Below are positions 27,724-46,361 of a stretch of DNA of 64,000 nt, one piece after another; the first letter of the stretch is position 1; each line of letters begins with the position of its first letter. A program made the translations under genes and the position numbers. Source of the stretch: an uncultured Candidatus Rokubacteria bacterium (GTDB lineage Bacteria > Methylomirabilota > Methylomirabilia > Rokubacteriales > DASRDR01); the NCBI GenBank assembly GCA_963708025.1, contig CAVPSB010000018.1, forward strand, positions 559,812 to 623,811, given 5' to 3'. The notes beneath the pieces are model-generated. The model did not search any database. It saw nothing but the letters and a program-made list of their open reading frames with translations, and was not told the origin of the DNA.

Positions 27724-27798
27724 GCAGTTCGCGTGCCCCCCGCGGGAGATCGCGATGGGGTCAAGCCCTAGGGGTGGCGGCGACCGCAAAGTTTGCAG
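27724..27798 (-). promoter_or_regulatory. Sigma54 promoter plus upstream activator motif
   Basis: Minus-strand GGGCACGCGAACTGC (27724-27738); ACCGCAAAGTTTGCAG (27783-27798). Confidence 0.7.
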
Positions 27799-27863
27799 CC
27801 CGGTCGATTCGGTGGCGTCTCCGGAAAAGCCGCCAGAGTAAGCGCCGGAGTCATCGCCGAGTT

Positions 27864-28425
27864 TCAGCATTGGTAGTGACGGCGCCCAGCGCCTAGCGGA
27901 TGATCTGCTCCTCCACGGCGGGTGCCGAGGGTAATGGCAAGGCTCCCCTCGGGGCGCTCACCCGTGAGGATGGTTCGACGGCAGATGGACGGGGCGGATG
28001 GCGCGCTCGCGCATCGGCCGACCACCCGCTCCGCCAGATTTCGGAGCTCGCGGACGTTGCCCGACCAGGCGTATTCCCCTAGGGCCTGGAAGCGCCACGA
28101 GCGACGAATAACTGCCGCCGCGTGCAGACCGAGCGCAGAACTCCCGAAGGAAGGCGCGGCGAGGAGCGCGATCGGCCCAACGGCGAGCCGGTAGCAGAGG
28201 TCCTCGCGGAAGGCGTCCGCCCGAACGGCGGCCTCCAGATTCTCGTTGGTCGCGGCGACCAAGCGGACGCCCACGGTGATTGGGCGGCTCCCGCGGCGGA
28301 TCTCGCGCTCCTGCAACACGCGGAGAGAGTTGACCTGGATCATGGAACTCTTCCCCGACCTCGTCGAGGAAGAACGTTCCGCCGTTGACCTGCTCGATCC
28401 GCCCGGCCTTCGTCGCCGGCGCTCC
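27864..28425 (-). pseudogene. Decayed copy of 3' half of sigma54 activator 43805-45208
   Basis: [45 protein letters not shown]; multiple frameshifts and deletions. Confidence 0.85.
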
Positions 28426-28457
28426 GCTGACACCGGCTCGCTGACGGCGGCTGACGC

Positions 28458-29612
28458 TCACCGGCGGGCCGGGGTCTGGGACCGGCGGACCAGGCGGAGC
28501 GAGAGCGTCTGAGGGGCGACGCTCTCCAGCAGCACGCCCGGCGGGAGGTTCACCGCGGCGTCACGGATGTTGAGCGTGAGGAATCCCTCAGCCGCCCCGG
28601 CCAGATCGAACCGTGCGACCAGCGTCGTGAGGTTCGCGGACTCGAGGATCCACGCTCGCCCCCGGAGCTGGGTCTGAAGCGTCTGCGTGGAGAGGTACGA
28701 GACCTCCAGGTCTGCCGGGACGTTGCTGAGCTCGACCGGCACCGTGACCGACCGCACGGAGCCCCCCGTGAGGAGGACGGAACTCCCCCACACCAGGGCT
28801 GCCAGTCCCACCGCCGTGGCCTTGAGGGTGAAGTCTCCGAGGAACACTTGCCGGAGCCGTCGCGTGCGGCCGATCGGACGGGGTTCGCGCTGCTGTCGGA
28901 TCGCCTGCACCAGGGCGTCGGGAGTCTGGACGGCGACCATGTCCCCGCCGGATGCTAGGCTGACCTCGCCGCGCTCTTCCGACACGGCGACGACCAGCGC
29001 GTCGGAGCGCTCGGCGAGCCCCATGGCCGCCCGATGGCGGGTCCCGTAGTGGCGAGGTACGTCGCGCCGCTGGGTGAGTGGCAGAAGCGCGCTCACCCGG
29101 GCGATGTGGTCGCCCTCGATGATGGTGGCGCCATCATGCACCGGCGACACCTTGCGGAAGATGGCTTCCAGGATCTCCGTCAAGATGGTCCCGCCGAGCG
29201 GGACGCCACCTTCCATGAGCTCGTCCAGGGGCTCGTCGCCCGCGATGACGATCAGAGCGCCGCGGCGCGCGTGCGCCAGGGAGAACGCGGCGGTCGCGAT
29301 CGCGTGGAGCGACCGCTCGACGGTTGACGCACGGGGCGGGAGCAGCCAGGCCATCACGTCCAGCCGGACCAGGGCGCGCCGGAGCTCGGCCTGGAACACG
29401 ATCAGGATCACGATCAGGGCCGCCAGCGTGGCGGCGTCGAGGACCCACACCGTCAGCGACAGCCCGAGCTGCCGCGCGACGACGGCGCCGACCCGGAGGC
29501 CCACGATCACGAGCGAGACCCGGAACGCGCGCGCCTCGCGGCCCCAGCGCAGCACGAGGTAGATGACGAGCGCGAGGACGAGCGAGTTGACGAGGCCCCG
29601 CCAATGCATCAC
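28458..29612 (-). CDS. Membrane diadenylate cyclase (CdaA-type) with C-terminal TM and YbbR-like domain
   Basis: N-terminal TMs, IVFQ.ELRRAL, catalytic HDGA and GTRHRAA, VSEERG. Confidence 0.9.
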   Translation of the reverse strand: MMHWRGLVNSLVLALVIYLVLRWGREARAFRVSLVIVGLRVGAVVARQLGLSLTVWVLDAATLAALIVILIVFQAELRRALVRLDVMAWLLPPRASTVERSLHAIATAAFSLAHARRGALIVIAGDEPLDELMEGGVPLGGTILTEILEAIFRKVSPVHDGATIIEGDHIARVSALLPLTQRRDVPRHYGTRHRAAMGLAERSDALVVAVSEERGEVSLASGGDMVAVQTPDALVQAIRQQREPRPIGRTRRLRQVFLGDFTLKATAVGLAALVWGSSVLLTGGSVRSVTVPVELSNVPADLEVSYLSTQTLQTQLRGRAWILESANLTTLVARFDLAGAAEGFLTLNIRDAAVNLPPGVLLESVAPQTLSLRLVRRSQTPARR

Positions 29613-29858
29613 GACTCCGACCGGGTGCGGGTGAAGGCGGTGCGTGACCCCGAGACTCCGGTCTGGACCGAGCGTTGGTCAACGCGCCACGTCGGGTGCC
29701 ATCCGCGCTGGCCGGCGGCAAGCGACACGAACCGGAGCGCGAGGGGCGACACGCCCCAGCCTGCGCCCGCCCGTCCACCCTGCGCGTTCAGCAGGATACA
29801 CGAGGGCCCGTATCCCCAGCCAGGCTCCCGATCGCGCGCCGCCAACCCGAGGTACTGG

Positions 29859-29953
29859 CTGCAAGACTTGCAGACCCTTCTGGGGTGCCATGCGGCAGTC
29901 CGACCGCAAACCACTGAAACAGTATGGGATTCTGCGTATGGCAGCCGGCTTGC
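29859..29953 (+). promoter_or_regulatory. Sigma54 promoter plus palindromic activator site
   Basis: CTGCAAG-A-CTTGCAG (29859-29873); TGGCAGCCGGCTTGC (29939-29953). Confidence 0.8.
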
Positions 29954-30091
29954 TGTCCTCCCAGCCACGAGCCTCTATCTGGGCGGGGCACATGACGGTG
30001 ATCGACTCACCGCTGGACCAGGGCGTCGAGGTCGGGGTCTCGGCGCACGCTTCCTGACCGCCGCGGTGGAACGAAGTGAGGAGGGAGACAT

Positions 30092-30703
30092 ATGAGGGCG
30101 AGACGAGAACTGGCCGGTGCGGTGGTGCTCGGCGTTCTGGTGCTGGGCACGGGCTGCGCGAAGCCACCCGATGCGGAGGTGGCCGCGGCCAAGGCCGCGG
30201 TCGAGCAAGCGCGGAGTGCGGGAGCGCCCGAGTACGTGGCCGAAGCCTTCAAGGGCGCGGAGACCGGGCTCCAGAAGGCTCAGGAGGAGATCAAGGCGCA
30301 GGACGACCGATTCGCTCTGACGCGGAACTACGACAAGGCCAAGGAGTCATTGGCGAGGGTCAAGGCGGACGCGGAGAAGGTCAGGACCGACGCGGTGGCG
30401 GCCAAGGAGAAGGCCAAGGCGGCGGCCGAGGCGGCCCGGACGGACGCGCAGGCGGCGCTGGATGGGGCCAAGGCGCTCCTGGTGACAGCCCCCAAGGGCA
30501 AGGGCACCAAGGCGGACATCGAGGTCATGGGCGCCGATCTAAAGATCGCCGAAGCGGCCCTCGCGGACGCCCGGACCGCGCTCGACCGCGAGGACTACCT
30601 GGGCGCCAAGGCCAAGGCCGAGTCCGCCAAGGACAAGGCTGCCGCGGTGAGCGCGCAGGTGCAGCAGGCGAAGGCGAAGACGGCGACGGTGAAGAAGCGG
30701 TAG
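30092..30703 (+). CDS. Alanine-rich helical lipoprotein (DUF4398-like)
   Basis: Lipobox GTGC, then KPP.AE..AAKAAVE.AR.AGA..Y. Confidence 0.8.
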   Translation: MRARRELAGAVVLGVLVLGTGCAKPPDAEVAAAKAAVEQARSAGAPEYVAEAFKGAETGLQKAQEEIKAQDDRFALTRNYDKAKESLARVKADAEKVRTDAVAAKEKAKAAAEAARTDAQAALDGAKALLVTAPKGKGTKADIEVMGADLKIAEAALADARTALDREDYLGAKAKAESAKDKAAAVSAQVQQAKAKTATVKKR

Positions 30704-30706
30704 GGG

Positions 30707-31851
30707 ATGGCGGCCCGTCGGGGGTGGCCGGCCCTCTCGGGCCGGACGTCCGGCATGGTCGGTGCCGGGGTCGCGGTCGCCGCGGGCGCCACGCTCCTCG
30801 CATGCTGGACCTCGGCCCCGCTTCCATCCGATCTGCCGGCGGCGGCGGAGCGGATCGAGGAGGACGCCTCGCGGGCGGGCGCGGCCGAACTGCTGCCCGA
30901 GCAGTATGCCGCGTATGGCCGCCGGCTGGTCGAGGCACGCCGCGTGTTTCGCCGGGAAGCCGACCGCTGGTGCGTGCTGCAGGGCCGGGCGCGCGTGGAG
31001 CAGGCATTCGCGGATCTGGAGCTAGACGGCCGGGCGCTTCTCCTGGCGGCCCGTGAGCGGAGCGCTGCGATTCGGCAGGAAGCGGTCAGGCACCTGGAGG
31101 CGACCGAGCGGCAGTTGGCCCGGTTTCGCGCCTGGCAGAGCGAGCTGGGGATGTACCTTCACCCGTCCCCCTTATCCACGGCCGATCTCGCGCTGCGCGA
31201 GGCGCGGCACTACCTGGACGCCGGGGTGTACGAGCGGGCGCGCGGACGCGTGGACGTCGCCGCCACATCCCTCCGGACGGTGGAGGGCCAGGCCCGAAGC
31301 CAGGTCCTCCGATACAGCGAAGGACCGGCGATGACGAGGTGGCGGCGATGGATTCGGGACGCGGTCGCGTTGTCGCGGGCGGGCCCGGTCCTCGTGATCG
31401 CGAAGGCCGAACGGCGCCTGTTCCTGTACCGGCACGGTCACGCCGTGGCGGACTCCCCGGTCGGGCTGGGCTTCAACGCCTTGGCCGACAAGCTCTCCGA
31501 GGGTGACGGGGCGACCCCGGAAGGCCGGTTTCGGATCGTCGCCAAGAAGAGCGGGACGGAGACGCGCTACGATCGGGCCCTGGTCTTGGATTATCCGACG
31601 GCGGACGATCGCCGGCGCCATGCGCAAGCCGTCCGCCGGGGGCTGCTGCCGCGGCAGGCCAGGATCGGCGGGCTGATCGAGATTCACGGCCGGGGGCCCG
31701 GGCCGGCCGACCGGACCAGCGGGTGTGTGTCGCTGGATCACGAGGCCCTGGTCACACCCTGTTCGACCTGGTCGACCGGGGCACCCCGGTGACGATTGTG
31801 GGGGCCACGTCGCCGCGAAATCCGGTTGCCCAGCAGACCCGGGCCGGGTGA
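30707..31851 (+). pseudogene. L,D-transpeptidase (YkuD) with N-terminal helical region; frameshift near 3' end
   Basis: KAERRLFLY, EGDGATPEG, IEIHG...GCVSL; tail LFDLVDRGTPVTIVG shifted at ~31750. Confidence 0.85.
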
Positions 31852-31871
31852 CAGGAGGAGATGGCCGTCCG

Positions 31872-32523
31872 GTGAGGAGACGCGACGGAGGCCGGCACGA
31901 ACGAAGGACCCTGACTCCACGACGCGCGGTCGCGTGGGCCGCGCTCGCTGCCGTCGCGGCCTGGGGCCTGACGGGATGGCTGGCCACGACGCTGACCGCC
32001 TGGGAGCCACCCCCGGAAACCTCGCCGCAGGGGGCGCCCCCGGGGCCGGACGCGACGGCGCTGTCGCGCCTCGCGCCGCGAGGCCTCTACGTGGTCGTGG
32101 ATACGGCCCGTAAACCGCCTGAGCCTCAGGCGCCGTGACGAGACGCTGTACACGGCGGTCGCGTCCACCGGGAGCGGGGCGCGCCTGATCGCCCCGCGCG
32201 ATCCCAGCCGTGGCTGGCGATTCGACACCCCACGCGGGGTTTTTTCGATCACGAGCAAGCACGTCAATCCCGTCTGGATCAGGCCGGATTGGGCGTTCCT
32301 CGAAGAAGGCCTCTCGGTCCCCTCCACGCCGGAGGAGCGTGCGGAGCCCGGCGTGCTGGGCCGGTATGCCCTGGGGTTCGGGAACGGCTACTTCATCCAC
32401 GGCACCCTCTACACCCGGCTGCTGGGCACCAACGTGACCCACGGGTGCATCCGACTCGGTGACGCGGATCTGGAGCATATCTTCAAGACGGTTCCGCTGG
32501 GTGCGACCGTCTTCATCTACTAG
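31872..32523 (+). pseudogene. Second L,D-transpeptidase; frameshift at ~32112
   Basis: TM, YVVVDTA / NRLSL, FDTPRG, PVWIRPDWAF, YFIHGT...THGCIRL. Confidence 0.85.
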
Positions 32524-32578
32524 GCTGGCCGTCGGGTGCGTCCGATGGGTCCGCTCGCGCGAGGATTTCCGCACCGGG

Positions 32579-33256
32579 ATGTGCGCCACCGCGTCGGCCA
32601 TCCTCGTCGCGACGGCCCTGAGCGGGGCCTTCGCTGGGACCCAACCCCCTCCGGCGCCGGGCGCATCCCCCTGCGATGCGCTGGCTGGGCTGGAACTCAG
32701 CCTGGCCGGCCGCCCGAGCCTGTACGCAGTGGTGGACGGCCCCTCGCGGCGGATCGAGCTGAGGGCGAGAGGCGTCGTGCTTCGCCGGTTTCCGCTCAGG
32801 GAGCTGTCCTCGATCGGCCACGCGCGGGCGCCGACGGGCCCATGGGTCCTGGTCGCCAAGCTCCCGCTTATGGAGCCCGCCCCGACGATGCCTCGGCCTC
32901 CGGGAGATACCACATCCGCTCAGAACGGAGCCGAGGACAGCCCGATGACCGTGGCGACCATGCCGGCGCGCTATCGGCTCGTGTTCCAGGGCGATCTCTG
33001 GATCCTGGTTCATCCAGGAGGGGCTGAGACTCGCTGGCAGCGGTTCTGGGACGGGCTGGGCGCCGTGACGGATCGAATCACCGCGTGGGCGAGGGTGCTC
33101 ACGGGGCGGGTCGTCGGAGCCCGGCGACTGGTGCTCTTCGTCGAGCTGACTGGCGAGGAGGGGAGGGCCTTGTACTGGGCTGTCAGACCCCCGCTGCCTG
33201 TCCTGCTGCGGGTCGCGTGCCCGTCCGGCGAGCCGATCCCCGGCCCGGACCGCTGA
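32579..33256 (+). CDS. Exported hypothetical protein, LDT-like N-terminal strands without catalytic motif
   Basis: Signal-like start; LYAVVD...IELRARGVVLRRFP; fourth gene of the operon. Confidence 0.55.
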   Translation: MCATASAILVATALSGAFAGTQPPPAPGASPCDALAGLELSLAGRPSLYAVVDGPSRRIELRARGVVLRRFPLRELSSIGHARAPTGPWVLVAKLPLMEPAPTMPRPPGDTTSAQNGAEDSPMTVATMPARYRLVFQGDLWILVHPGGAETRWQRFWDGLGAVTDRITAWARVLTGRVVGARRLVLFVELTGEEGRALYWAVRPPLPVLLRVACPSGEPIPGPDR

Positions 33257-33484
33257 CGCTTCAGGCGGCAGGCGCACAGAGCCTGCGACAAGCGGGTGGA
33301 CGAAGCGCGGCACGAGCAGAGCGACCTCAGCGGATGATCGTGTACGCAAAGCCAAGCGGCCTGGTGCGCAGCCGCGGAAAGGCCCTCGTCAAGGCCGAAA
33401 GCGTCGGCAGCGCCTTGGGCGAGAATGGGTCGCGGCCGGCCCAGAAGCGTCTTCCTCCTTCCACGGCACTCTCACGTCACCATC

Positions 33485-34807
33485 CTATCCGGCATTCGAA
33501 ACGCTCTTGCTGCGCCTCGCCTTGACCGTCACGATCCGAGGGCCGTCCATGTCCACGACGGTCCAGACGACGCCGTGCGCCGAGACGGACACCCCGGGCA
33601 GGGGCACAGTGTTGAGGGTGTGAAGAAGGAACCCGGCAATCGTCTGGTACTCGGACGACTCCTCCAGCGGCAGCCCTGCCTGAACGCGGAGGTCGTGGAT
33701 CGAGGCAGTGCCCTCGATCCGATAGGAGCCGTCCGAGAGACGGGACAGGTACGGGAGTCCTCGCGGCTCCCGCTCTTCGTGGATCTCTCCTACGATCTCC
33801 TCGATCAGATCCTCGACGGTCACCAGCCCGACAGTCCGCCCGTACTCGTTGACGACCATGGCCATGTTCTGGTGCTGCCGCTGGAACTCGCGGAGCACCT
33901 CACTGATCTGCGCGGTCTCAGGGACGAAGAGGGCAGGATGGAGCAGCTGGACCAGCACCGGGGGCTTGCCGTCGGCCGCGCAGCGGAGCAGGTCCTTGAT
34001 CACGACGACCCCGATGGTGTCGTCCACTGAGCCCCGGACGACGGGGAATCGGGTGTGGCCGTAGGCGACCGCCTGGGTCAGGACCTCGCCGGGCGCCGTG
34101 TGAAGCCCCAAGGCCAGGATCTTCGGGCGGGGGACCATGACGGCGCGGACCGGCGTGTCCGTGAACTGGAAGACCCTGTGCAGCAGCTCGCTTTCCTGGT
34201 GCTCGAAGATGCCGTGGGACACTCCCTCGCGAACGAGGTACTTGACCTCGTCTCCCTCCGACACGAGCGGCGCCGGCGGCGTCCCGCGCTGCCTCAGGAG
34301 CGTCAGCACGGCGCGGGTGGACGGCGTGAGGATTCGGCCGGGCCACGCAGCAGCCCGGCCGAGGGCCCGGATCGGCCGGGCAACCAAGCAGGCAACGCGC
34401 TCGGGATCCCGCAGGGCCAGCGCCTTGGGCACGAGCTCGCCCGCCACGAGGGACACGTAGGTGATCGCCAGGATCACCAGGCCCAGGGCGACTGGCGCGG
34501 CCCACTGGCGCGCCCCGGGGACGGGCCACGCCGCGAGCCAGGGCGTCAGGGCCTCGATGGCCGTCGCCCCGCCCACAGCCGAGCCGAGGGTGCCGACGAG
34601 CGTCCTGGCGATCTGGATGGGGGCGCGGAAGGTCTCCGCTTCGCCCTTGAGCGACAGTGCGGTGGCCGCTCCGCGGGCCGCCTCGTCCCGGAGTTGCGTC
34701 AGGCGGGCCGTGCGAGCGGAGACCAGGGCGATCTCGGAGCCCGCGAAGAAGCCGTTGGTGAGGATAGCGATGAGGATGAGCACCGTCTCGAGCCAGATCG
34801 TGTCCAT
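33485..34807 (-). CDS. HlyC/CorC (CNNM-CBS-CorC) family membrane protein
   Basis: NGFFAGSEIALVS, GELVPK, VMVPR, HTRFPV, VNEYG...GLVTVEDLIEEIVGEI, YQTIAG. Confidence 0.93.
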   Translation of the reverse strand: MDTIWLETVLILIAILTNGFFAGSEIALVSARTARLTQLRDEAARGAATALSLKGEAETFRAPIQIARTLVGTLGSAVGGATAIEALTPWLAAWPVPGARQWAAPVALGLVILAITYVSLVAGELVPKALALRDPERVACLVARPIRALGRAAAWPGRILTPSTRAVLTLLRQRGTPPAPLVSEGDEVKYLVREGVSHGIFEHQESELLHRVFQFTDTPVRAVMVPRPKILALGLHTAPGEVLTQAVAYGHTRFPVVRGSVDDTIGVVVIKDLLRCAADGKPPVLVQLLHPALFVPETAQISEVLREFQRQHQNMAMVVNEYGRTVGLVTVEDLIEEIVGEIHEEREPRGLPYLSRLSDGSYRIEGTASIHDLRVQAGLPLEESSEYQTIAGFLLHTLNTVPLPGVSVSAHGVVWTVVDMDGPRIVTVKARRSKSVSNAG

Positions 34808-35274
34808 GATGGTCGTTGCCCTCTGCCGGTTTGCGTGCCAGGTCGCACGACGGAGGCGCGCGACGGTGTGGTGCCCATGATCGCTGATACGACGTCGGCC
34901 CACGGAGGGGGCCGGCACCCAGACCGGTTCAGTGGCATCTGGATCGCCGCGGGGGCCCTGATCGATGACTCGCGATCTGCCCGTCATGGCTCGGCCACCC
35001 CGGAGCGTGCGCGCTCCCGGCGGGGTGGCGGAGGGCTGACGGACCGCGTGACGAACCGGGCTCGAGAGCAATCATCGTCTACCGGCCAAGTGCCGGCGTG
35101 GGCAGGAGAACCGGCGGCCATCCGTCGGGCTGAAGCTGTTGGTCGATCTCGGCAACCAGCCGCGTCCTGAGCGCCCCGACGTCCGGCACGACCGCCGGCG
35201 CCCGCTGAGTGAGGAGGCCGGTCTGGCATGCCTTCCGAAACGGTGCCCGCATCCATCCTCCCGGCCGCGGCGCG

Positions 35275-35637
35275 TCAGCGCGGGCCTGCCCTGCGCGACT
35301 CGGCGCGTCGCTGTTCGGCACGGATCTCTTCGAGCAGGGCTCGCGCACTCGCGAGGCGCCCGCTGAAAATCTGACGCGCAACGTCCAGGAGCTGAAACAG
35401 CCGCGCGTCTCGGACGCGATAGCGCACGATGCTCCCATGTTTCATGGTTTCGACGATCCCCTGGCTCCGCAGCACCGCCAGTTGCTGTGACACGACGGAC
35501 TGATCGAGACTCAGATCATGCTGGAGCTTGCTGACGCTCGCGTCCTCGGTGCGGAGCCTCTCGAGGATGGCAATTCGTGTCGGATGAGCAAGGGCCTTGA
35601 AGAAGTCCGCCATGAACGGCCGAAGGGCCTGAGCCAT
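35275..35637 (-). CDS. ArsR/SmtB-family regulator
   Basis: FFKALAHPTRIAILERL...VSQQLAVLR. Confidence 0.9.
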   Translation of the reverse strand: MAQALRPFMADFFKALAHPTRIAILERLRTEDASVSKLQHDLSLDQSVVSQQLAVLRSQGIVETMKHGSIVRYRVRDARLFQLLDVARQIFSGRLASARALLEEIRAEQRRAESRRAGPR

Positions 35638-36173
35638 ATGTAGATCTCCGCGGTTTACGCTCAGCGGTCCACCGCGGGGGGGCCGTCGCTGCAAGGAAGC
35701 ATCCCTCTCGTATGGGGAGGCCCCGTGAAGGAAGGCCGAGCCATGAGGGCGGGGTCCTTTACCGTGGCACCACGAAAAGCGTCGCGGTCATGGTCGGCGC
35801 GTGCGTCGAAGACCGGGCTCGAGGGCTGATGATCCGGTGACCGAGGAGCTTTGATTTCGTGGTCCTCGTCGGCGCGATGTAACTCCTGCTCCGGTGGGGG
35901 TCGTGACGATCGAGCCTTCCGCGTCGCATTCGCGATCCTCGGGCTTGTCGCCGGGGCGGTCTTCGCGCGGCCGCGTGAGCGGCTGATCACGAGCCAGGGT
36001 CTTCGCGCTGGCGAGCCTCCCGGCTCTCGTCGCGGTGCTGGTCCGTGTTCCAGGGCGAACTCCGTCACGCCCTGGCGCGGCTCGATGTCGTCCGCCGCCG
36101 CCCGGGCGCGACCGAATGGCTTGTGCAAGTGATCCGCACGGCGGCGTTCTTCTGAGACGATGAGCCCGGACCG

Positions 36174-36914
36174 CTACGGGGCGCTCCACACGACCCGCCC
36201 CGATTCGTCCAGAAAGGCCAGCCCCGGCCCGGCGTCGGCGACCACACCGAGCTCGACCCTGGTGCGGCCCTGCGGGTCGTAGAAGCCCAGCGTCGCGACG
36301 CCATCCGCCGAGACGCCCAGACCGAGGCGGGGTGTCTCGTCCTTCTGGGCGAACGCCAGGTAGGCCGAGCCATCGGGCCGCACGGCGAGCTCGACCCGCG
36401 TTTTGCCGCTGGGGTCCGTGAGCGCCAGGCTGAGCGCGCCGTTGGCACCGACGAGGAGGACAACGCGGGGTTTGCCACGCTGGTCGGCGAACGCGAGGGT
36501 CGGCGAGCCATCGGCGCGCAGGCTCAGCTCCACGTGGGTCCGACCGTCGGTGTCCGCCAATCCGAGCGTCGGCGTCCCATCGCGTCGCAGCGCCAATTCC
36601 GCCCGCGTCTTCCCGTCCTTGTCGACGAGGCCGAGGCTCGGGGTCCCGTCCTCGCGCATGCCGAGCGCGGCACGCACCTTGCCGGCTTCATCGAGAATCC
36701 CGAGGGCGGGCGTGCCATCCGCCCGTACGGCCAGAGCGGCGCGCCGCCTGCCCGACGCGTCCACGAGCACGAAGCTTTCGGCCGAGATGACTCTGGCCGT
36801 GGGATTCGGCGCCGTTGGGCCCGCGAGCAACATGGCACCGAGCACGATGGCTGCGCCAACGGCGAGGCGTCCTCGTCTCCTCCACCCCGCTGTGAGCATC
36901 CCGTTCTCAGCCAT
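36174..36914 (-). CDS. Exported protein with eight 23-aa beta-hairpin-type repeats
   Basis: TM or signal, AESFVLVD, then repeats such as KTRAELALRRDGTPTLGLADTDG; ends VWSAP. Confidence 0.8.
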   Translation of the reverse strand: MAENGMLTAGWRRRGRLAVGAAIVLGAMLLAGPTAPNPTARVISAESFVLVDASGRRRAALAVRADGTPALGILDEAGKVRAALGMREDGTPSLGLVDKDGKTRAELALRRDGTPTLGLADTDGRTHVELSLRADGSPTLAFADQRGKPRVVLLVGANGALSLALTDPSGKTRVELAVRPDGSAYLAFAQKDETPRLGLGVSADGVATLGFYDPQGRTRVELGVVADAGPGLAFLDESGRVVWSAP

Positions 36915-36989
36915 CCGCCGACCATCCCTTGTTCCGCGCGCACGACACTCGACAGCAGCCCGCGCAATCACCTCGCCCGCCATGCGGGA

Positions 36990-38787
36990 TCATGGCTCGT
37001 CAAGGAGCGGGCGCAAGTCCGCCGGGATCTCCGGCAGTGGCGCTTGTGTCGCTGTCAGCCGCTGCTCGGCTCGCCGCGCAAGGATGTTGACCTTGGAGAA
37101 GTGACCGTCAGGCCTTGGATAATCGGCCCGCGTATGGCCGCCGCGACTCTCGCGTCGTTCCAGGGCCGCGAGGGTCACGGCCTCCGACACCGTCAGGAGC
37201 GCGTGGAGGTCCAACGCGAGATGCCACCCGGGGTTGTAGCAGGCGCTTCCGACCACCGCCACCTGCTTGGCACGGTCCTTCAATCGGTCCAGTCGTTGCA
37301 AGGCCTCCTTCAGCTCGGCTTCTGTGCGGACGATGCCGACCAGTTCCTGCATCAGCGCCTGAAGGTCCTGCTGGATCGCGTACGGATTCTCCCCGGTCTT
37401 GCGCTCAAAGGGGGTTCGGAGCTCATGGACGACGGCGTCGATGAGCCCATCGTCCAGGCTGGCGTGACCACGCCACGCTGCGGCATACTGCGCCGCCGCG
37501 ACTCCGGCGCGGCGGCCGAAGACCAGGAGATCCGACAGGGAGTTGCCGCCGAGGCGGTTGGCCCCATGTAACCCACCGGCGATCTCACCCGCGGCGAACA
37601 GGCCGGGCACCCCAGTGGCCGTGGTGTCGGCGTCCACCCGCACCCCGCCGTTCATGTAGTGGGCCGTGGGCCCGACCTCCATGGGGTCCCGGGTGATGTT
37701 GACGCCGGCGAGCTCCATGAACTGGTGATACATGGAGGGCAGCCGTCGCCGAATGTACTCGGCGGGACGCCGCGACGCGATGTCGAGGTACACGCCGCCG
37801 TGCGGGCTCCCGCGTCCGCCCTTGACCTCGGCGTTGATCGCGCGCCACCTCGTCGCGGGGGAGCAGGTCCGGCGTGCGCCGGGCGCTCTTCTTGTCCGTA
37901 TACCAGCGGTCGGCCTCCGCCTCCGTCTCAGCCGTTTCGGTGCGGAAGTACTCGGGAATGTACCCGAACATGAACCGCTCGCCCTTGCTGTTCTTCAGCG
38001 TGCCGCCGTCGCCGCGCACACCCTCGGTCACCAGGATGCCGCGGACGCTGGGTGGCCACACCATGCCGGTTGGGTGGAACCGATAGCACTCCATGTTGAT
38101 GAGGTCAGCCCCGGCCTCGAGCGCCAGCGTCACGCCGTCCCCCGTGCACTCCCAGGAGTTGGAGCTGAATTGCCAGGCTTTGCCGATTCCACCGGTGGCC
38201 AGGATCACGGCCTTGGCGTGGAAGATCACGAACCGGCCGGTCGGCCGATGGTATCCGAAGGCGCCGGCGATGCGGCCGTCATCCGTGAGCAGCCGCGCGA
38301 TGGTGTACTCTATGAAGACATCGATGCCACGGTGCACCACGTGCTGCTGCAGCGTGCGGATCATCTCGAGCCCGGTCCGATCCCCGACATGCACCAAGCG
38401 CGCGTAGCGGTGGCCGCCGAAGTCGCGCTGCAGGATCCGTCCGTCTTTGGTGCGGTCGAAGAGCGCCCCCCAGCGCTCGAGTTCCAGCACGCGGTCCGGC
38501 GACTCTTGGGCGTGCAGCTGCGCCATTCGCCAGTTGTTGAGCAGCTTGCCGCCGCGCATCGTATCCCGGAAGTGAACCTGCCAGTTGTCCTCGGGATACA
38601 CGTTTCCCAGCGCGGCCGCAATCCCGCCCTCGGCCATCACCGTATGGGCCTTCCCGAGGAGCGACTTGCAGACGAGAGCAGTCCGGGCGCCCGCGGCGGC
38701 CGCTTCGATCGCGGCCCGGAGCCCGGCGCCGCCCGCGCCCAAGACGAGGACGTCATAGGCGTGGTGCTCGCACTCGGCTCGACTCAT
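36990..38787 (-). pseudogene. sdhA: Succinate dehydrogenase/fumarate reductase flavoprotein; frameshift at ~37840
   Basis: GAGGAG, KAHTVMAEGG, FHPTG, TEGVRG; second frame HYMNGG, HGANRLGGNSL, RRESRGGH. Confidence 0.88.
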
Positions 38788-39126
38788 GCGATGAGCGCGC
38801 CTCTGCCCGATCGACGCATGCGCGGCGTCTTCCTCACACGGGGAGCATGGCCCTCCGCCAGTCCCACGTGACAGCCGGGACTGTCGCTCGAAGACGACGG
38901 CGTCGAGCGCGACGGCCCACCCGGTGACGCACGTGGCGAGCCAGGAATGGATACTGTCCGCCGCGGCCGTCCAGGCCGCCCAAGGCCAGGAGCGTCCGGC
39001 CGGTGTCGAATGTGACGTCATCGGTCTGATACCTGCGCATCGCGGCCTGCCTCTCAAGAAAGGGTACATTCCCGTTGCTGGCCCGCGAGTCCTCTGGACC
39101 CGACCCCCCGGGCGTCGGCGTGTCTA

Positions 39127-39360
39127 TCACGCGGCCTTGGAGGCCAGGCGCACGCTGACGCCTGCGGCTCGCATGGCGGCCGCAATCGCGTCCACGGCGC
39201 TCGGCGTCTCGATTCGCAGGAGTGCGAACTCGCTCCGGGCGCCGCGGTCGGTCCGCGGCAGGCTCGCCGTCTGAACCACGTGGGGCGGTAGTACGGAGAG
39301 GATCTCGACGAGTCGCCCCGCAACCGGGTCGATCCACTGCATCTCGAGCATGTAGTCCAT
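39127..39360 (-). CDS. Small hypothetical protein downstream of sigma54 promoter
   Basis: MDYMLEMQWIDP...; purine-rich leader. Confidence 0.5.
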   Translation of the reverse strand: MDYMLEMQWIDPVAGRLVEILSVLPPHVVQTASLPRTDRGARSEFALLRIETPSAVDAIAAAMRAAGVSVRLASKAA

Positions 39361-39445
39361 GCGGCTTCTTCCCTTCTGACTTGCCCGAGGCCCGAGAAGG
39401 ACGAGCTCCCGCCCTTCCCGGGCGCACGGGCTCCCAAGGCGACCG

Positions 39446-39574
39446 CTACCGCTCCGCGGCTTGCGCCGGCTGTGGCGGCGCGGGGGCCGGGGCGGGAGGC
39501 GGGGGTACGGGCTGCGCGCCGCCACCCGGCTGAGGTTCCCGCGGCGGCTTGGACCGGATCTTCTTTCCTCCCAT
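39446..39574 (-). CDS. 42-aa Pro/Gln-rich peptide
   Basis: GGAGG RBS; MGGKKIRSKPPREPQPGGGAQPVPPPPAPAPAPPQPAQAAER; first ORF after sigma54 promoter. Confidence 0.45.
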   Translation of the reverse strand: MGGKKIRSKPPREPQPGGGAQPVPPPPAPAPAPPQPAQAAER

Positions 39575-39625
39575 GCTCTTGGTCACCTCCCTTCGTCAGC
39601 GACACTCCTCGGGATGTTCAGAGGA

Positions 39626-39967
39626 GCAAGGGCTCTGCCACGCCCGAAAACGCCAGGGAGCGTTGATGCTTGCACTCCCACCTGGTGGGCGGCCGCGACG
39701 GCCGACCGCAACTCTTGCAGTCCCGGCCTCAGCACGGCTTGGCCGGTACCGGGGGTCATCACGGGGGCCGAGAGGCGCCGATGGATGGCCGTTCTCAGAC
39801 GCCATCACGGCCGGGCCTTGGGACCGCGGAGAACGCGATGGAGAGCGCCCGCAGCCCGCCAGCCTCGCCGACTGCAGGATTTGCGGTCGCGGGTGGGGGC
39901 TTGGACGCCGCGCGTGTCAAATCGGCGACGCAGCATGCGCACATAGCGGGTTTGGTACGCCCGGTGC
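39626..39967. promoter_or_regulatory. Divergent sigma54 promoters, each with an activator motif
   Basis: Minus TGGCAGAGCCCTTGC (39626-39640) with ACCGCAACTCTTGCAG (39705-39720); plus CTGCAGGATTTGCGGT (39872-39887) with TGGTACGCCCGGTGC (39953-39967). Confidence 0.78.
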
Positions 39968-40034
39968 TTCTGTCATCGCGTGCCGTGGTGTGGGACGTGG
40001 ACGATTCCCTGCGGACAGAGAGGAGAGTGGCAGC

Positions 40035-40430
40035 ATGAAGACCGTTGGCGTGTTGGTAGTGGCGTTGGCGGTGGGCTTGACCAGCGCAGCGTGGTCGCAG
40101 TCGGCTCAGGGACCCGCCAAGACGGACCCGGCCAAGGCGGCGCCCTCGGCATCGCCCCCCAGCGAGGTCAAGAAGGCGCCCGAGAAGCTGACGATGGTGA
40201 GCGGCAAGGTGAAATCGGTCGGGCCGAACGCGCTGGTCGTCCAGGTGGCGGGCAAGACGCCGAAGGAACTGACGTTTGACCTGACGGGCACGGCCATCAA
40301 GGCTGGCGGCAAGGACGCCGCGTCCACCGACCTGAAGGACGGCGACGAGGTCCGGGTCGGGTACATGGAAGCGGACGGAAAGCTGGTCGCCAAGACCGTG
40401 AGCGCGAAGGCCGCGAAGGTGAAGAAGTAG
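40035..40430 (+). CDS. Secreted small OB-fold-like protein (DUF5666-like)
   Basis: Signal peptide; SGKVKSVG...DLKDGDEVRVGY. Confidence 0.75.
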   Translation: MKTVGVLVVALAVGLTSAAWSQSAQGPAKTDPAKAAPSASPPSEVKKAPEKLTMVSGKVKSVGPNALVVQVAGKTPKELTFDLTGTAIKAGGKDAASTDLKDGDEVRVGYMEADGKLVAKTVSAKAAKVKK

Positions 40431-40769
40431 CCCGCAGCACTCGCCGCAGCCCGACTCCTGGCCCCGGGGGCCTCGCCGGGCGTCAGGGTTCGGGCCGCGG
40501 CGTCGCGGCGACATGAAGTATCCGCCTCGCCAGGAGTTGACTGGCGGGGCCAAGGCCGGCGCCGACATGGATGTGAGCGTCATCGGCCGGGCGCACGCGC
40601 TGGTCGGGTTCGGGCCCCGTCAGCGGGCAGCGGCTCGCCGGCGCTTGTCGGGCCCAAGATGCCCTCGTCGTGTGGTGGGTCGCGCCGAACACGGGACGGC
40701 GTCCGTGCCGGGAGGTCGGCCGGCGTCGCCGTTCAGTACGCGCTAATCCGGCGCAGGGAGGACGCGTGG

Positions 40770-42008
40770 GTGGCTCCTAAGGAACGGCGTCCCCGGGTTG
40801 TCGGCGTCACGGGCTGCGCGCCGCTGGCCGCGGTGACGACGGAGCACGGGTCCGAGGCCGAGCAGCTGGCTCAGCATTTGCGATTCCTGGCCGACCATCT
40901 CGGGGCCCGGCCGGTCGGCAGTGCGGAAGCGTCGCGGGCCGCCCGCTACCTTCGTGACGCGATCGTGAGTCTCGGCTTCACCCCGGAGGTCCAGGCATTC
41001 TCCGTGACCCTTCGCCTCGGTCGCCAGGCTCGGTTGCGGAGGGCGGACGGCCGCTCCCTCCCCTGTCAGGCGGCGCTCGGTTCGTTCGGCACGCGAGCGG
41101 TTCTGCGAGGCGTGCCGCGGCTCGTGACCGAGAGCGAGCGGCGGGCGTGGCCGGCCGCCGTGGCCCCCGCGAACACCTTCGCCGTCTGCCCGATCGATCG
41201 CGACGGGGAGGCCGCGGCCGTGACCGGCGCGGTGCAGGGAGGGGCGAGCGCGGTCCTCCTCTACCGGGAGCGGACACCGGAGCTCTACTCGGCCGCCATT
41301 CCGGACGGTGGGCTCCCGGTTCCGTGCGTCACGATTCGGCCGGCCGATGGGCTGCACCTGGTCGCCGAAGGGCGAGACGTCGAGCTGAGCGTCGAGACAG
41401 AGCGACGGACCGCCCTCGGTGAAAACCTGATCGTCCAATTCGGACAGGGGGGACGCCCGCTGTTGTTCCTCGCCAACTACGACTCGCGGCCCGGTACGCC
41501 CGGCGCGTATCAGAACGGCTCGGGCGTGGTGGCCTTGGTGGGCCTGCTCACGCGACTCCGGGGCTGGCAGGGCCACGAAGTGCTGGTGGGATTCCTTGGT
41601 GGAGACGACCCCACCGCCGCAGGCTCGCGACACTGTCGCGACGTGGTGCAGGCGACGCACGTGCCGCCGAGCCTGCGAGGCATCGTCTACGTGTCGGCCG
41701 TCGGGACGAACAGCCTGGCAGCGGTGCCCGGTGACTCGGCGAAGTCTCCCCGGTTGGCGGAGGTCGCGCGACGAGCAGTCACGGCGGACGGTTTGACTGT
41801 GGGAGATCCTGGAGTGCTCGCGGCCAACGCGGCGGCGGCCGCTCGGCTCTGGGGGTGTCCCGTGGTGACGCTGACCGGTCCCCGCTTGCCCCTCGAACAC
41901 ACCGGGCTCGACCGACCGGATCTCGTGAGTCCTCGCGGCTTGGCGCGGGTAGTGTCCGTGCTCGAACGCCTCGCTCGGATCCCGGACGGTGCCGGTTCGG
42001 CGACCTAG
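40770..42008 (+). CDS. M28 peptidase-like protein with PA domain and degenerate active site
   Basis: GARPVGS...AARYL, ENLI, ANYDS, PGAYQNGSG, HT..D. Confidence 0.7.
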   Translation: MAPKERRPRVVGVTGCAPLAAVTTEHGSEAEQLAQHLRFLADHLGARPVGSAEASRAARYLRDAIVSLGFTPEVQAFSVTLRLGRQARLRRADGRSLPCQAALGSFGTRAVLRGVPRLVTESERRAWPAAVAPANTFAVCPIDRDGEAAAVTGAVQGGASAVLLYRERTPELYSAAIPDGGLPVPCVTIRPADGLHLVAEGRDVELSVETERRTALGENLIVQFGQGGRPLLFLANYDSRPGTPGAYQNGSGVVALVGLLTRLRGWQGHEVLVGFLGGDDPTAAGSRHCRDVVQATHVPPSLRGIVYVSAVGTNSLAAVPGDSAKSPRLAEVARRAVTADGLTVGDPGVLAANAAAAARLWGCPVVTLTGPRLPLEHTGLDRPDLVSPRGLARVVSVLERLARIPDGAGSAT

Positions 42009-42431
42009 CGCGAGCGGCAGGGGGGAGGCGGGCTGACGCGAAGCCCGTTGTCGCGCGACGTTGGACAGCTCCCGATGTCCGGGGGGGAGCAGTAGGGCGG
42101 GTCCCCCGGATCGACGGCTGGACGCCGGCGCCGTGTGGCGATCTCCTCTCTCTGTGGCTGCTCGTGGTCGGCTCCTGGCCGCTCGGCTGACCTGGGAGGC
42201 CGCGGTGTCGCACGCGCATCGACCGTCTTGGGCCGTATTAGACCAGGCGTGGCGTCCGGAGCCGCGTGGCCACGTGGCGCGGAGCCGCCAGCGGGGACGC
42301 GTCGCCGTGGCCCAGCCACGTTTCCGCGTGACTGCCAGAGTGCTAGAGTGCGGAGGATGACGAAGTGCCGTTCCCGAACGCCGTCTCGGATCGATGGGCC
42401 GCGGGGCGGTGGCCGGAGGCTGGTCTAGCCC

Positions 42432-43805
42432 ATGCTCCGTCCGGCGCCGGCCCGCTCACTTCTGGGATACGTCCCGCTCCGCTTGGCCGCGTCGGTCTTT
42501 CTCCTCTTCGCCTTGCTTCTCGCGGCCGCCGTCGGGGTCGGCATCCAGTTCGAACGGCACTCCCTCGTGAGTTCCGGCGCCATTGCGTCGCCCGGGGATC
42601 TCCGCGCTGGCCTCACGTGGAACGATGCGCTGAAGATCGTGACGATTCTCCTGACGCTCGCCGCTGCCGCCATCGTGCTGTTCACCACGTTTCAGAACTA
42701 CCGATCGGCCACCCAGACGTTTGAGCGCGTCAAGGCCCTCATGCGGAACGTGTTGGAAAGCATCCCGACCGGCGTGTTGACGCTGGACTCCGACGGGGTG
42801 GTCACCTCGCTCAACACCGCCGCCGAACGCCTGCTCGGGGTTCGGGCCTCGATGGTCGTCGGCCGCCCGTTGGAAGACGCGCTCCAGCGAGCGGCCGAAC
42901 TCGCCGCCTGGGTGCGCGCGGCACTGTGCGGCCAGGGACTCGTCCAGGAGAGCGACCTGTCCGTGTCGGGCGCCGAGAGTCGCCGGCTGATTGTGCGCGT
43001 GTCGGCTGCTGAACTCCGTGACGAATCGAGTCGGTCCGACGGACTGGTCGTCCTCCTCCGCGACGTTACCGAGGTCAGCCGGCTCGAGCTTCAGCTCCGG
43101 CGAGCGGACAAGCTCGCCGCGCTCGGCACGCTAGCCGCCGGGGTGGCCCATGAGGTGAAGAACCCACTGCACGCCCTGAGCCTGAATCTGCACCTGCTGG
43201 TCCAAGAGCTCGGGGCGCCCCAGCCGGCCAAGGGGGAGCTCGAGGATTATCTCGGGATTCTTCGGTCGGAGATCGAGCGCATTCACCAGATCGTGGAGAA
43301 CTTCCTCCGCTTTTCGAAGCCCTCGATTCCGGAAGTGAAGCCGCTCGATCTCAACGCGCTTGCCGAGCGGGTGCTCAGTCTCGTCGCGTTCGAAGCGGCG
43401 GGGCACCGGGTCGGGATCCAGACCGAGTTTGACCCCGAGCTCGACCCGATCGCTGGCGACGAAGGCCAGCTCGCCCAGGTCGTCCTCAATCTCGTGATCA
43501 ACGCCCTGCAGGCCATGCCGGCCGGCGGGAATCTGGCGCTCGCGACGCGGCGCGACAATGGCTGGGCGGCGCTCACGGTGAGGGATACTGGCGAGGGCAT
43601 CCCGCACGAGGTCATTCCGCAGATTTTCGACCCGTACTTCACCACCCGGCCGGGCGGGTCCGGGCTCGGGTTGGCGATTGCCCACCGGATCATCGAAGGC
43701 CACCACGGCACCATTGACGTCGACAGCAAGGCGGGCCTGGGGACGACCATGGTCGTCCGCCTCCCGCTGGCCGGTGGGCCCATGCCGGCCGCGAGGAGCG
43801 CCTGA
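42432..43805 (+). CDS. PAS-domain sensor histidine kinase (NtrB/AtoS type)
   Basis: 2 TMs, PAS, AHEVKNPL, NLVINA, DTGEG, FDPYFTT, GSGLGL. Confidence 0.95.
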   Translation: MLRPAPARSLLGYVPLRLAASVFLLFALLLAAAVGVGIQFERHSLVSSGAIASPGDLRAGLTWNDALKIVTILLTLAAAAIVLFTTFQNYRSATQTFERVKALMRNVLESIPTGVLTLDSDGVVTSLNTAAERLLGVRASMVVGRPLEDALQRAAELAAWVRAALCGQGLVQESDLSVSGAESRRLIVRVSAAELRDESSRSDGLVVLLRDVTEVSRLELQLRRADKLAALGTLAAGVAHEVKNPLHALSLNLHLLVQELGAPQPAKGELEDYLGILRSEIERIHQIVENFLRFSKPSIPEVKPLDLNALAERVLSLVAFEAAGHRVGIQTEFDPELDPIAGDEGQLAQVVLNLVINALQAMPAGGNLALATRRDNGWAALTVRDTGEGIPHEVIPQIFDPYFTTRPGGSGLGLAIAHRIIEGHHGTIDVDSKAGLGTTMVVRLPLAGGPMPAARSA

Positions 43806-45208
43806 TGCGAGGCAACGTCCTGGTCGTCGACGATGAGCTGAACATTCGGACCGCGCTGGGGAAGATACTCGAGAAAGCCGGTCACGCGGTCGTGGTGGCG
43901 GAGAGCGGAGACCAGGCACTGAGCCGGCTCCACGAGACGTCGTGTGACGTCGTTCTCACGGATCTCAAGATGGTGGGCGCTGGCGGCCTGGACGTCCTGC
44001 GTGCTGTCAAGCAGCGACAGCCGGAGGCCGAAGTGATTCTGTTGACGGCGTTCGGCACGATCGACAGCGCCGTCGAAGCGATGAAGATCGGGGCGTACGA
44101 CTACCTGACCAAGCCGACCGACCCCGAACGGCTCGTCCACGTGGTGGCGAAGGCGCTCGAGCACAAGGCGCTGCGTGAGGAAGTCCGTCAGTTGCGCGAG
44201 CGCATCGCGGAGCGCGAGGCGTTCGAACACATCGTGGGACGAAGTCTCCGGATGCGCGAGGTCTACGAGCGGGTCCGCCAGGTCGCCTCGACGACCGCGA
44301 CCGTGCTCATCAGCGGCGAGTCCGGGACCGGCAAGGAGCTGGTGGCCCGGGCCATTCACAACCGCAGTGCCCGGAAAAGCGGACCGTTCGTGACGTTGAA
44401 CTGCGGGGCGCTGCCGGAGACCCTCCTCGAGTCCGAGCTCTTCGGCCATGAGCGCGGCGCGTTCACCGGCGCGCTGGCGACGAAGGCCGGGCGGATCGAG
44501 CAGGCCGACGGCGGCACGCTGTTCCTGGACGAAGTGGGCGAGATGAGCGCCAAGACCCAGGTGGACTTTCTTCGGGTCCTCCAGGAACGGGAGTTCCGTC
44601 GAGTCGGGGGGACGCATCCGCTCACGGTGGATGTTCGGTTCATCGCGGCGACCAACAAAGAGCTGGAGGCGGCCGTCAAGGGGGGGGCATTCCGCGAGGA
44701 CCTGTATTATCGGCTCGCCGTGGTGCCGATCACCCTGCCGCCGCTCCGCGAACGAACGGAAGACCTCCCCGTGCTGGCGACCGCGTTTCTCCGGGAGTTC
44801 TGCACCCGGTACGATCGCGCGGAGAAGTCCTTCTCGGCGCCGACGTTCCAGGCGCTCCGCGAGTATGCGTGGCCCGGCAACGTCCGCGAGCTCCGGAATC
44901 TCGTCGAGCGGCTCGTCGTCACGGTCCCCGATCGGGTGGTCCGTCCCCTCCACCTCCCCTCCACGATCCTGACGGGCGAACGCCCGGAGCACAGTGTCAC
45001 GATCCCGTTGGGCATGCCCCTCCACGTCGTCGAGGAACAGGTGATCCGCCGAACCCTCGGCGCGATCACCGCGAACCGGGAGCGGGCCGCCAAGGTCCTC
45101 GGCATCAGCCCGCGCGCTCTGCACTACAAGCTGCGGCGGTATGGGATCGAGAAGTTGCCGCGCGAGCGATCCGAGGAGGAAGAGTCGCCCCAGCGGCCCC
45201 AGCCGTAG
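43805..45208 (+). CDS. Sigma54-dependent response regulator (NtrC/AtoC family)
   Basis: Receiver, GESGTGKE, intact [21 protein letters not shown], Fis-type HTH. Confidence 0.97.
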
Positions 45209-45281
45209 GGCCTGGGTTCCAGACTGAGGCGAACGTCCCCGTTTCTCCGCGTGCCTCGGCCCAGCGGGCCCCTCCGGCACA

Positions 45282-45409
45282 CTGCAACTCTTGCGGTTCG
45301 ACCGCCACCTCCGCCGGGTGGGTCGCCCGTTCGGCGCGCCTCCCGACGGACTAAGCCGCTGTCTCGCTGAGGGTTTCTGGCCCCTCGTCCTCGCAGGCAC
45401 GCGAATTGC
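45282..45409 (+). promoter_or_regulatory. Sigma54 promoter plus activator motif
   Basis: CTGCAACTCTTGCGGT (45282-45297); AGGCACGCGAATTGC (45395-45409). Confidence 0.8.
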
Positions 45410-45428
45410 CGTGCAGACGAACGAGGCC

Positions 45429-46118: not shown

Positions 46119-46361
46119 ATGGGCGGCGAACGCAACGGGGTCAATGGTCACCACAGGGGGATAGGGGTGGACACACTCATTGTGGTCGTCACGTGTGAGC
46201 GCTGCGGGCAAAGCTGGCACCAACGGTCCGTCTCGCCCGAGCAGGTCCTGGAGTGCATTTTTTGCGGCTGTCGAGGACACCTCAGCCTCGGGCCCGCCCA
46301 GGCCGATCCGAACGGGACCCAGCATGCGGAAGGGTGGCTTCATGGTCCGCGCGCATCCTAG
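46119..46361 (+). CDS. Small zinc-ribbon protein
   Basis: CERC...CIFC. Confidence 0.55.
   Translation: MGGERNGVNGHHRGIGVDTLIVVVTCERCGQSWHQRSVSPEQVLECIFCGCRGHLSLGPAQADPNGTQHAEGWLHGPRAS

Follow-up and report, generated by a model that had tools for sequence, protein, structure and literature searches.

The DNA analysed here is a 64,000-nucleotide (nt) window, the whole of one stretch of contig CAVPSB010000018.1 in the genome assembly GCA_963708025.1 of an uncultured Candidatus Rokubacteria bacterium, and all coordinates are positions within it. Its central part contains the genes of a sensor kinase and of a sigma54 activator, five copies of a palindromic candidate operator, each with a predicted -24/-12 element nearby, and a series of genes that follow these sites (Table 1). 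A preliminary description of this DNA had proposed that the kinase and activator control a peptidoglycan-remodelling or envelope-stress programme, and that sensor, activator, operators and targets all lie in this region.

Table 1. Features of the predicted sigma54 locus, in order of position
Feature	Position	Strand	Remarks
Decayed unit: truncated TPR-like open reading frame (27359-27652) and remnant of a Pal-like gene (about 27072-27188)	27072..27652	-	
Sigma54 -24/-12 element, best for copy 1	27672..27687	-	96 nt from site
Operator copy 1	27784..27798	.	Located in the decayed paralogue; copy 5 is its positional homologue
Activator gene fragment, decayed paralogue	27948..28448	-	66-69% DNA identity to local and relatives' activators
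Operator copy 2	29859..29873	.	Highest matrix score in the genome
Sigma54 element of copy 2	29939..29954	+	65 nt from site
DUF4398-like helical lipoprotein	30092..30703	+	Pfam score below cut-off
L,D-transpeptidase 1	30707..31851	+	YkuD, catalytic His and Cys kept; frameshift near 31750
L,D-transpeptidase 2	31860..32523	+	YkuD, catalytic His and Cys kept; frameshifted one or more times near 32105
Protein of unknown family, fourth gene of transpeptidase operon	32579..33256	+	Also in that operon in G050, G054 and G059
Split FAD-binding (SdhA-like) gene and repeat protein (36174-36983)	36174..39069	-	Behind site 3; presumably co-transcribed
Small open reading frame, 77 aa	39127..39360	-	73-aa part tested, no Pfam match
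Sigma54 element of copy 3	39625..39640	-	65 nt from site
Operator copy 3	39706..39720	.	
Operator copy 4	39872..39886	.	In G006 the kinase gene comes directly behind the homologous site
Sigma54 element of copy 4	39953..39968	+	66 nt from site; likely autoregulatory promoter
Secreted DUF5666-like protein	40035..40430	+	
M28/PA peptidase-like protein	40659..42008	+	Without expected metal ligands
Sensor kinase	42432..43805	+	Two predicted membrane helices, short outer loop, PAS, HisKA (His240), HATPase; 457 aa
Sigma54 activator	43805..45208	+	Receiver (Asp53), AAA+ with Walker A/B and GAFTGA, Fis-type helix-turn-helix
Operator copy 5	45282..45296	.	Follows activator gene
Sigma54 element of copy 5	45395..45410	+	98 nt from site
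ABM-like (dimeric alpha/beta barrel) gene	45429..46083	+	Frameshifted here; intact (about 225 aa) in relatives
Small CxxC-CxxC zinc-ribbon-like protein	46167..46361	+	
Small TPR-like protein	46382..46861	+	
Pal-like OmpA-family lipoprotein	46893..47549	+	TIGR02802 124.7 bits against a cut-off of 125.35

The five 15-bp palindromes share the core TGCA-N5-TGCA within the fuller consensus CTGCAA-N3-TTGCRG, and the sequence search found them where the preliminary description had read them. All five sites and their promoters are near consensus. The elements originally assigned at 29939(+), 39640-39625(-), 39953(+) and 45395(+) are the best local ones. However, the element assigned to copy 1, 27724(-), is outscored by that at 27687-27672. 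The weaker element (27723-27738, minus strand) lies 45 nt from the site, and the 96-nt spacing of the stronger one resembles the 98 nt at the homologous copy 5.

The strict pattern was observed five times in the window versus a mean of 0.01 and a maximum of 1 in 200 third-order Markov simulations, a comparison that overstates the excess because the pattern was derived post hoc from these very five sites. The 8.17-Mb genome holds 10 copies, including the five in the window, three within one tandem repeat and two single ones. In addition, the genome was scanned with a matrix trained on 34 site-plus-promoter pairs from other genomes, 2 of these from genomes without an activator orthologue. The five window sites ranked 1, 2, 3, 4 and 7 among 49 sites scoring at least 11. 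Among the 45 matches listed, a sigma54 score of at least 12 was found only at these five sites, and the next best value was 4.4. The combined scan that had been suggested for the motif and -24/-12 elements therefore leaves, among the matches listed, only the window sites paired with strong sigma54 elements. A genome-wide regulon in this genome was rejected on the same scan, which confines such pairs to the window region. Chance or a repeat element as the source of the five sites was also rejected, given the matrix, spacer and simulation results and a self-comparison of the window that shows no repeat covering them.

The activator domains PF00072, PF00158 and PF02954 all scored above cut-off. 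Its GAFTGA motif, described from the outset as intact, was confirmed at residue 218, and the Walker A/B motifs and the phospho-acceptor Asp53 are intact as well. Furthermore, an RpoN (sigma54) gene is present elsewhere in the genome. By its domains and motifs, the palindromic site by -24/-12 promoters and the presence of RpoN, the activator has the sequence properties of an NtrC-family sigma54 enhancer-binding response regulator. In a quick tree of 43 rows, the activators of Methylomirabilota, the phylum of the window genome, and of Nitrospirota formed one clade of 20 rows (Shimodaira-Hasegawa-like approximate likelihood ratio test 100), apart from AtoC, ZraR, NtrC and GlrR, and the recognition helix is conserved within this clade. 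The genome encodes 28 other activator matches, and none of the 18 readable recognition helices among them is identical to that of the local activator.

In the structure model of the kinase (mean predicted local distance difference test score 73), the two hydrophobic stretches form two long helices with a loop of about 15 residues between them. An invariant His or Cys that could bind a heme or form a flavin adduct is lacking in the PAS domain, and a fold search with the kinase N-terminus returned generic PAS matches only. Intramembrane-sensing kinases are defined by two membrane helices, a very short outer loop, small size and the lack of an extra sensor domain. The loop of the kinase is short, but with a PAS domain and 457 aa the protein falls outside this definition. 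Nevertheless, it may operate like that type. Neither the kinase nor the activator reached an NCBIfam equivalog cut-off among those shown, and AtoS and AtoC scored best.

We found that the site travels with this pair. The own-phylum sample comprised 250 Methylomirabilota genomes besides the window genome, and a site followed by a sigma54 element 63-68 nt on was counted as a pair. Of the 17 genomes with the kinase or activator, 9 had such a pair, compared with 3 of the 233 non-carriers, and a reversed-pattern control matched in 9 of 251 genomes. Among the eight carriers missed at this distance, G245, G247, G248, G087 and G052 have pairs at 86-107 nt, and in G169 no clear promoter accompanies the sites when the stricter threshold is applied. 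In a sample of 301 Nitrospirota genomes, the composite of site and promoter occurred in 16 of 23 carriers, beside the kinase in 15 of these 16, versus 23 of 278 others (reversed-pattern control, 10 of 301). Searching the genome collection with the N-terminal part of the kinase yielded 119 loci, of which 80 were kept, 12 of Methylomirabilota type and 68 grouped as Nitrospira-type, most of which bear that name, including Ca. Nitrospira defluvii. A protein search with the kinase alignment gave no further phylum among the labelled matches. Composite matches in five Nitrospira genomes were mostly local, and two of those in G251 look coding.

The spacer of the palindrome is specific as well. In the 68 Nitrospira-type loci there were 291 palindromes with a 5-nt spacer versus 51-104 for other spacers. 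When only sigma54-paired palindromes were counted, N5 gave 98 versus 2-8 for N3, N4 and N6-N9 in these loci, and 46 versus 0-4 in 20 Methylomirabilota loci including the window. The distances between site and promoter cluster at 64-66, 74-78, 85-86, 94-97, 103-108 and 115-119 nt, with a best helical period of 11.0 bp in Methylomirabilota and 10.5 bp in the Nitrospira-type loci. Sites resembling the consensus of integration host factor (IHF) were found in 2 of 46 spacers in Methylomirabilota (1.1 expected) and in 28 of 98 in the Nitrospira-type loci (9.9 expected; these loci are kin), so that their enrichment in the latter is suggestive only. The spacer and carrier comparisons place the motif above background frequency and link it to sigma54 promoters, and its co-occurrence with -24/-12 elements and activator orthologues, proposed in the preliminary description as a check, is enriched in carriers of both phyla.

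Because the palindrome travels with the pair through two phyla, it is likely the upstream activating site of the activator at 43805-45208. On these comparisons, the wiring of kinase, activator, operator and sigma54 promoters is very probably as predicted, and a real operator with a small local regulon, belonging to an undescribed activator clade common to Methylomirabilota and Nitrospira, is strongly supported by the sequence comparisons. A site lies within 450 bp after the activator gene in 52 of 59 related loci, and 46 of these also have a promoter when the threshold is relaxed. Upstream of the kinase, 39 of 64 loci have a site with promoter on the kinase strand within 3.5 kb. Since a site with promoter precedes the kinase in this way, the arrangement in G006 is direct and a terminator scan of the window region gave background-level hits only, positive autoregulation through the promoter at 39953 is likely.

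By analogy with the NtrC family, the circuit most likely works as follows. The kinase would autophosphorylate on a membrane-level cue and pass the phosphate from His240 to Asp53 of the activator, a dimer of which would bind the palindrome. The bound activator would loop over 65-110 nt to the sigma54 polymerase on the same helical face and drive promoter opening with ATP. Four promoters would be opened in this way, one of them the pair's own, and the promoter at 39953 would provide positive feedback. The signal could perhaps be a membrane or envelope perturbation read by the two membrane helices with their short outer loop.

One of the five sites needs a separate account. The region of 27.0-28.45 kb proved to be a paralogue, now decayed, of the activator-to-Pal unit at 44.4-47.5 kb. 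The preliminary description had noted neither this copy nor the frameshifts in the two transpeptidase genes and the gene at 45429. Site 1 is thus the positional homologue of site 5, kept while the adjoining gene decayed. All five operators first described are present, but only four occupy functional positions, and one lies in the decayed copy. A recent in-place duplication was rejected as the origin of the site at 27783, because the decayed copy is about equally far from the activators of relatives (66-69%) and from the local one (68%). A weak tRNA match (26125-26206; Rfam 35.8 bits, ARAGORN none) lies just before the decayed copy. As Rfam gave only this weak tRNA match on the window, an RNA element was rejected as well. 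In addition, two 80%-identical pieces resembling tRNA 5' halves are found at 12481-12557 and 18579-18655. Together, these tRNA-like features suggest an integration-prone zone.

Among the genes behind the sites, the two YkuD domains pass their cut-offs, the lipoprotein before them is of DUF4398 type below cut-off, the protein at 40035-40430 is DUF5666-like, and that at 46893-47549 is OmpA/Pal-like. Homologues of the repeat protein at 36174-36983 directly follow a motif-plus-promoter in G003. The M28-like protein is likely inactive, and a metal-binding Asp expected from the ligand pattern is absent in 8 of 8 relatives. The ABM label comes from Atlas features (0.91), with no Pfam match. Meanwhile, two stand-alone receiver-domain genes (47574-48678) follow directly after the Pal-like gene on the same strand. 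Divergent from site 2 is a gene for a CdaA-like diadenylate cyclase (28458-29612, minus strand), and what is left of a gene resembling it lies at 35.8-36.1 kb. The homologue of the cyclase gene in G006 (L021 near G006:C161:40477) has a palindrome about 55 nt before the gene and no good sigma54 element.

To describe the output of the circuit, we counted neighbouring genes in the 17 other Methylomirabilota carriers and the 68 Nitrospira-type loci, many of which are ended by contig borders, and direct control was predicted only for genes immediately behind a promoter. The Methylomirabilota carriers have TPR-like genes in 13 cases, ABM-like, zinc-ribbon and Pal-like genes in 10 each, M28-like genes in 8, DUF5666 and HyfB in 3 each and transpeptidases in 1. 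In the Nitrospira-type loci, small TPR proteins (45), a carboxypeptidase-regulatory-domain protein (41), a small CxxC protein (35), HyfB (31), an ABC transporter (29), CO_dh-family (25) and POR-like (21) genes were found, and DUF4398-type lipoproteins (16-17), Pal (1) and transpeptidases (0) were rarer. Conserved in these neighbourhoods are thus the kinase/activator pair itself, small proteins of TPR and zinc-ribbon type, lipoproteins and additions specific to single lineages. Exported and cytoplasmic proteins are mixed among them, and about half of the conserved targets look cytoplasmic. In both phyla, genes for Hyf/Ehr-type membrane subunits are found downstream of motif promoters (L049-L051 in G247, G245 and G248; L113:15168-20489), and an ArsR-like gene, recognised by eye, accompanies them in the Rokubacteria cases.

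We consider it rather probable that the predicted activator site and the pair switch on the neighbouring sigma54 promoters with a membrane or envelope stress programme as the output. This is consistent with the Pal-like genes in 10 of 17 loci, the DUF4398-type lipoproteins in 16 of 68, the DUF5666 and transpeptidase genes here and the ZraP-like (PF13801) genes that follow an N5 palindrome in three Nitrospirota without a kinase match. Envelope stress is a plausible output. The targets would turn over by lineage, with the transpeptidase operon as a local capture.

Several observations weigh against this interpretation. The neighbours that are most conserved look cytoplasmic or metabolic (TPR-like, ABM-like, zinc-ribbon and M28-like proteins; HyfB, ABC transporter and CO_dh-family). 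The distant carriers G046 and G063 have no site-plus-promoter pair in the stretches read, and four distant Methylomirabilota loci show no N5 peak. The operator is also not exclusive to this clade, since Nitrospirota without a kinase match carry N5 palindromes in tandem, 20-21 bp apart and with sigma54 elements (L175:9639, L176:8461, L178:9884 and L177:4739), and the tandem palindrome of G533 adjoins a different activator. With respect to the counts, the genomes are kin and not independent, so that the counts and Fisher p-values overstate the association; the kinase searches scored only 5-6 candidates per genome; the training sites of the matrix were selected using the pattern derived from this window; and the recognition helix was unreadable in 10 of the 28 other activator matches. 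Finally, frameshifts interrupt the two transpeptidase genes, the FAD gene and the ABM-like gene here, and the Pal-like protein has a Gly-to-Trp change relative to G006. Convincing site-plus-promoter pairs were also seen in two genomes without an orthologous activator (L059:15688 in G205 and L061:4572 in G228), where the best activator has 50-51% identity; either incomplete assemblies or another activator could account for them.

The broken genes raise the possibility that the wiring is real in the lineage but that, in this genome, the module is in decay and has fallen silent in part or altogether, whichever signal applies. The decayed copy of the unit, the frameshifts and the Pal substitution would fit such a state. 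However, the genes of the kinase and activator are unbroken, their products share 89-92% identity with the G006 counterparts, and the five sites and promoters have stayed near consensus. Moreover, unrelated activator genes of this assembly are likewise split across frames, so assembly error may explain the breaks. A 169-nt contig (depth 2.5) suggested an intact frame near 31750 in a relative and is uninformative for this genome. We regard decay of the module as possible, though improbable.

A second alternative keeps the same wiring and has the programme respond to energy, pH or redox stress, perceived at the membrane or through the PAS domain, with the envelope genes being secondary. Genes for Hyf/Ehr-type subunits neighbour the pair in 31 of the 68 Nitrospira-type loci and in 3 of the 17 Methylomirabilota genomes, CO_dh-family (25 of 68) and POR-like (21 of 68) paralogues are found near it too, a gene that resembles a cation/H+ antiporter by its translation lies behind one site in G241, and the gene downstream of site 3 here is SdhA-like. 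In addition, an acid-tolerant comammox Nitrospira upregulates hyfBCEF according to the part of PMC13109103 consulted, which would bear on the circuit if that strain carries the pair. However, the Hyf genes usually lie 1-5 kb from the promoter, and the PAS domain has neither the invariant residues for a heme or flavin adduct nor other than generic fold matches. We regard this as the main rival of the envelope reading, though a doubtful one. A broader proposal, which we put forward only tentatively, is that an ancient membrane-stress circuit predates the split of Methylomirabilota and Nitrospirota, with kinase, activator, operator, phase and feedback fixed and nearly all targets swapped; in Nitrospira, it could be the missing regulator of the Hyf/Ehr membrane complex and of a group of small proteins of unknown function, so that in a cultured nitrifier proton or envelope stress would be coupled to sigma54.

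The peptidoglycan-remodelling regulon centred on L,D-transpeptidases and Pal, as first proposed, is improbable. The strongest site does precede the lipoprotein-transpeptidase operon, the same operon lies directly behind the orthologous activator in G063, and Pal-like genes are present in 10 of 17 loci. However, the transpeptidases were found in only 1 of 17 and 0 of 68 related loci and Pal in 1 of 68, many of these loci being ended by contig borders. The operon is motif-linked only in this genome, and the lipoprotein that heads it turned up in only 4 of the 250 other Methylomirabilota genomes, three of which (G050, G054 and G059) have the operon with an unrelated kinase/activator pair and no N5 site in front. 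Because it follows this activator in G063 and sits with an unrelated pair in the other three, the operon behaves as a movable unit that would have been captured locally. Peptidoglycan remodelling as a general theme was thus overstated; what stands of the earlier proposal is a motif tied to sigma54 promoters and to the pair in two phyla. Lastly, it is very unlikely that an activator encoded elsewhere is the cognate binder and the local pair a bystander or target: there are 28 further activator matches in the genome, TGCA half-sites are common among sigma54 activators and the N5 palindrome adjoins a different activator in G533, but the sites cluster within kilobases of the pair in both phyla, are at background level in own-phylum non-carriers, and no readable paralogue has the same recognition helix.

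The mechanism proposed for this locus is of a known, textbook kind, and the locus resembles the small sigma54 regulons ZraSR and AtoSC but belongs to neither. AtoS/AtoC of Escherichia coli also consist of a membrane PAS kinase and an activator with receiver, AAA and helix-turn-helix domains, they gave the best NCBIfam matches for both proteins, the recognition helix is similar, and TGCA half-sites occur both here and in the AtoC site given in the part of PMC3118216 consulted. However, the scores are far below cut-off (AtoC 475 against 714, AtoS 319 against 646), AtoC has 43% identity to the local activator and is not in its clade, and no CoA-transferase operon (atoDAEB) was seen among the targets here. 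In addition, AtoC sites are described there as 20-bp elements with 6 nt between the half-sites, arranged as an adjacent inverted pair, whereas sites of the window type have a 5-nt spacer and are mostly single.

ZraSR is a sigma54 two-component system with a small, local and autoregulated regulon linked to envelope stress, according to the portion of PMC7657598 consulted. ZraS/ZraR/ZraP of E. coli, and DVU3381 in Desulfovibrio, resemble the present system in the small local regulon, and the ZraP-like genes behind N5 palindromes in three other Nitrospirota are a further likeness. However, the scores are below cut-off (ZraR 400 against 760, ZraS 193 against 479), ZraR lies apart on the tree, the local kinase has no large periplasmic domain, and the ZraP family (PF13801) had no match among the 23 window proteins scanned. 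The sites of DVU3381 are of TGTATA type in the rows of PMC4641369 consulted. The same rows list palindromic TGCA-type sites, obtained by comparative genomics, for the Desulfovibrio activators DVU1419, DVU2827, DVU3305 and DVU0539/0946, whose regulons comprise one to four operons and are small like the present one. Their spacings are 6, 4, 3 and 10 nt, in a comparison made by sites alone, and no consistent 5-nt family was found among the rows of that paper containing TGCAA plus the DVU3381 rows. NtrB/NtrC, GlrK/GlrR and PrsK/PrsR share the activator architecture and the GAFTGA loop, but the scores here are below the NCBIfam cut-offs for NtrC (450 against 559), GlrR (366 against 763) and PrsR (404 against 503), and NtrC and GlrR lie outside the clade. 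For the PEP-CTERM system PrsK/PrsR, the cut-offs of TIGR02915 and TIGR02916 were missed (404 against 503 and 93 against 300).

No description of the motif or the pair, and no described sigma54 regulon for Methylomirabilota or Nitrospirota, was found in the literature covered, which consisted mostly of open-access papers, with curated regulon databases outside it. The part of PMC12316311 consulted makes no mention of these phyla. For two poorly studied phyla, the analysis names a particular activator and its probable operator, along with predicted promoters and targets, brings several families of small unknown proteins together under a single signal and suggests that targets are exchanged under a fixed regulator. 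Because Ca. Nitrospira defluvii carries the pair, the predictions could be tested in a described nitrifier and not only in uncultured Rokubacteria.

Some other features of the window were also observed. The genes dnaN, recF, gyrB, gyrA and serS, labelled by eye, are in intact frames at 4116-12457, and the window adjoins a likely replication-origin region. An inverted paralogous pair (12656-13846, plus strand; 17068-18252, minus strand) with 66% DNA identity, ATP-grasp-like by eye, flanks tripartite-transporter-like genes. Three copies of a 60-95-nt element, 82-90% identical and without an Rfam match, lie at 19555-19650, 49744-49804 and 51254-51347. Finally, a stretch of lower guanine-plus-cytosine content (53966-55999; 60% at 54-56 kb) contains a broken large open reading frame.

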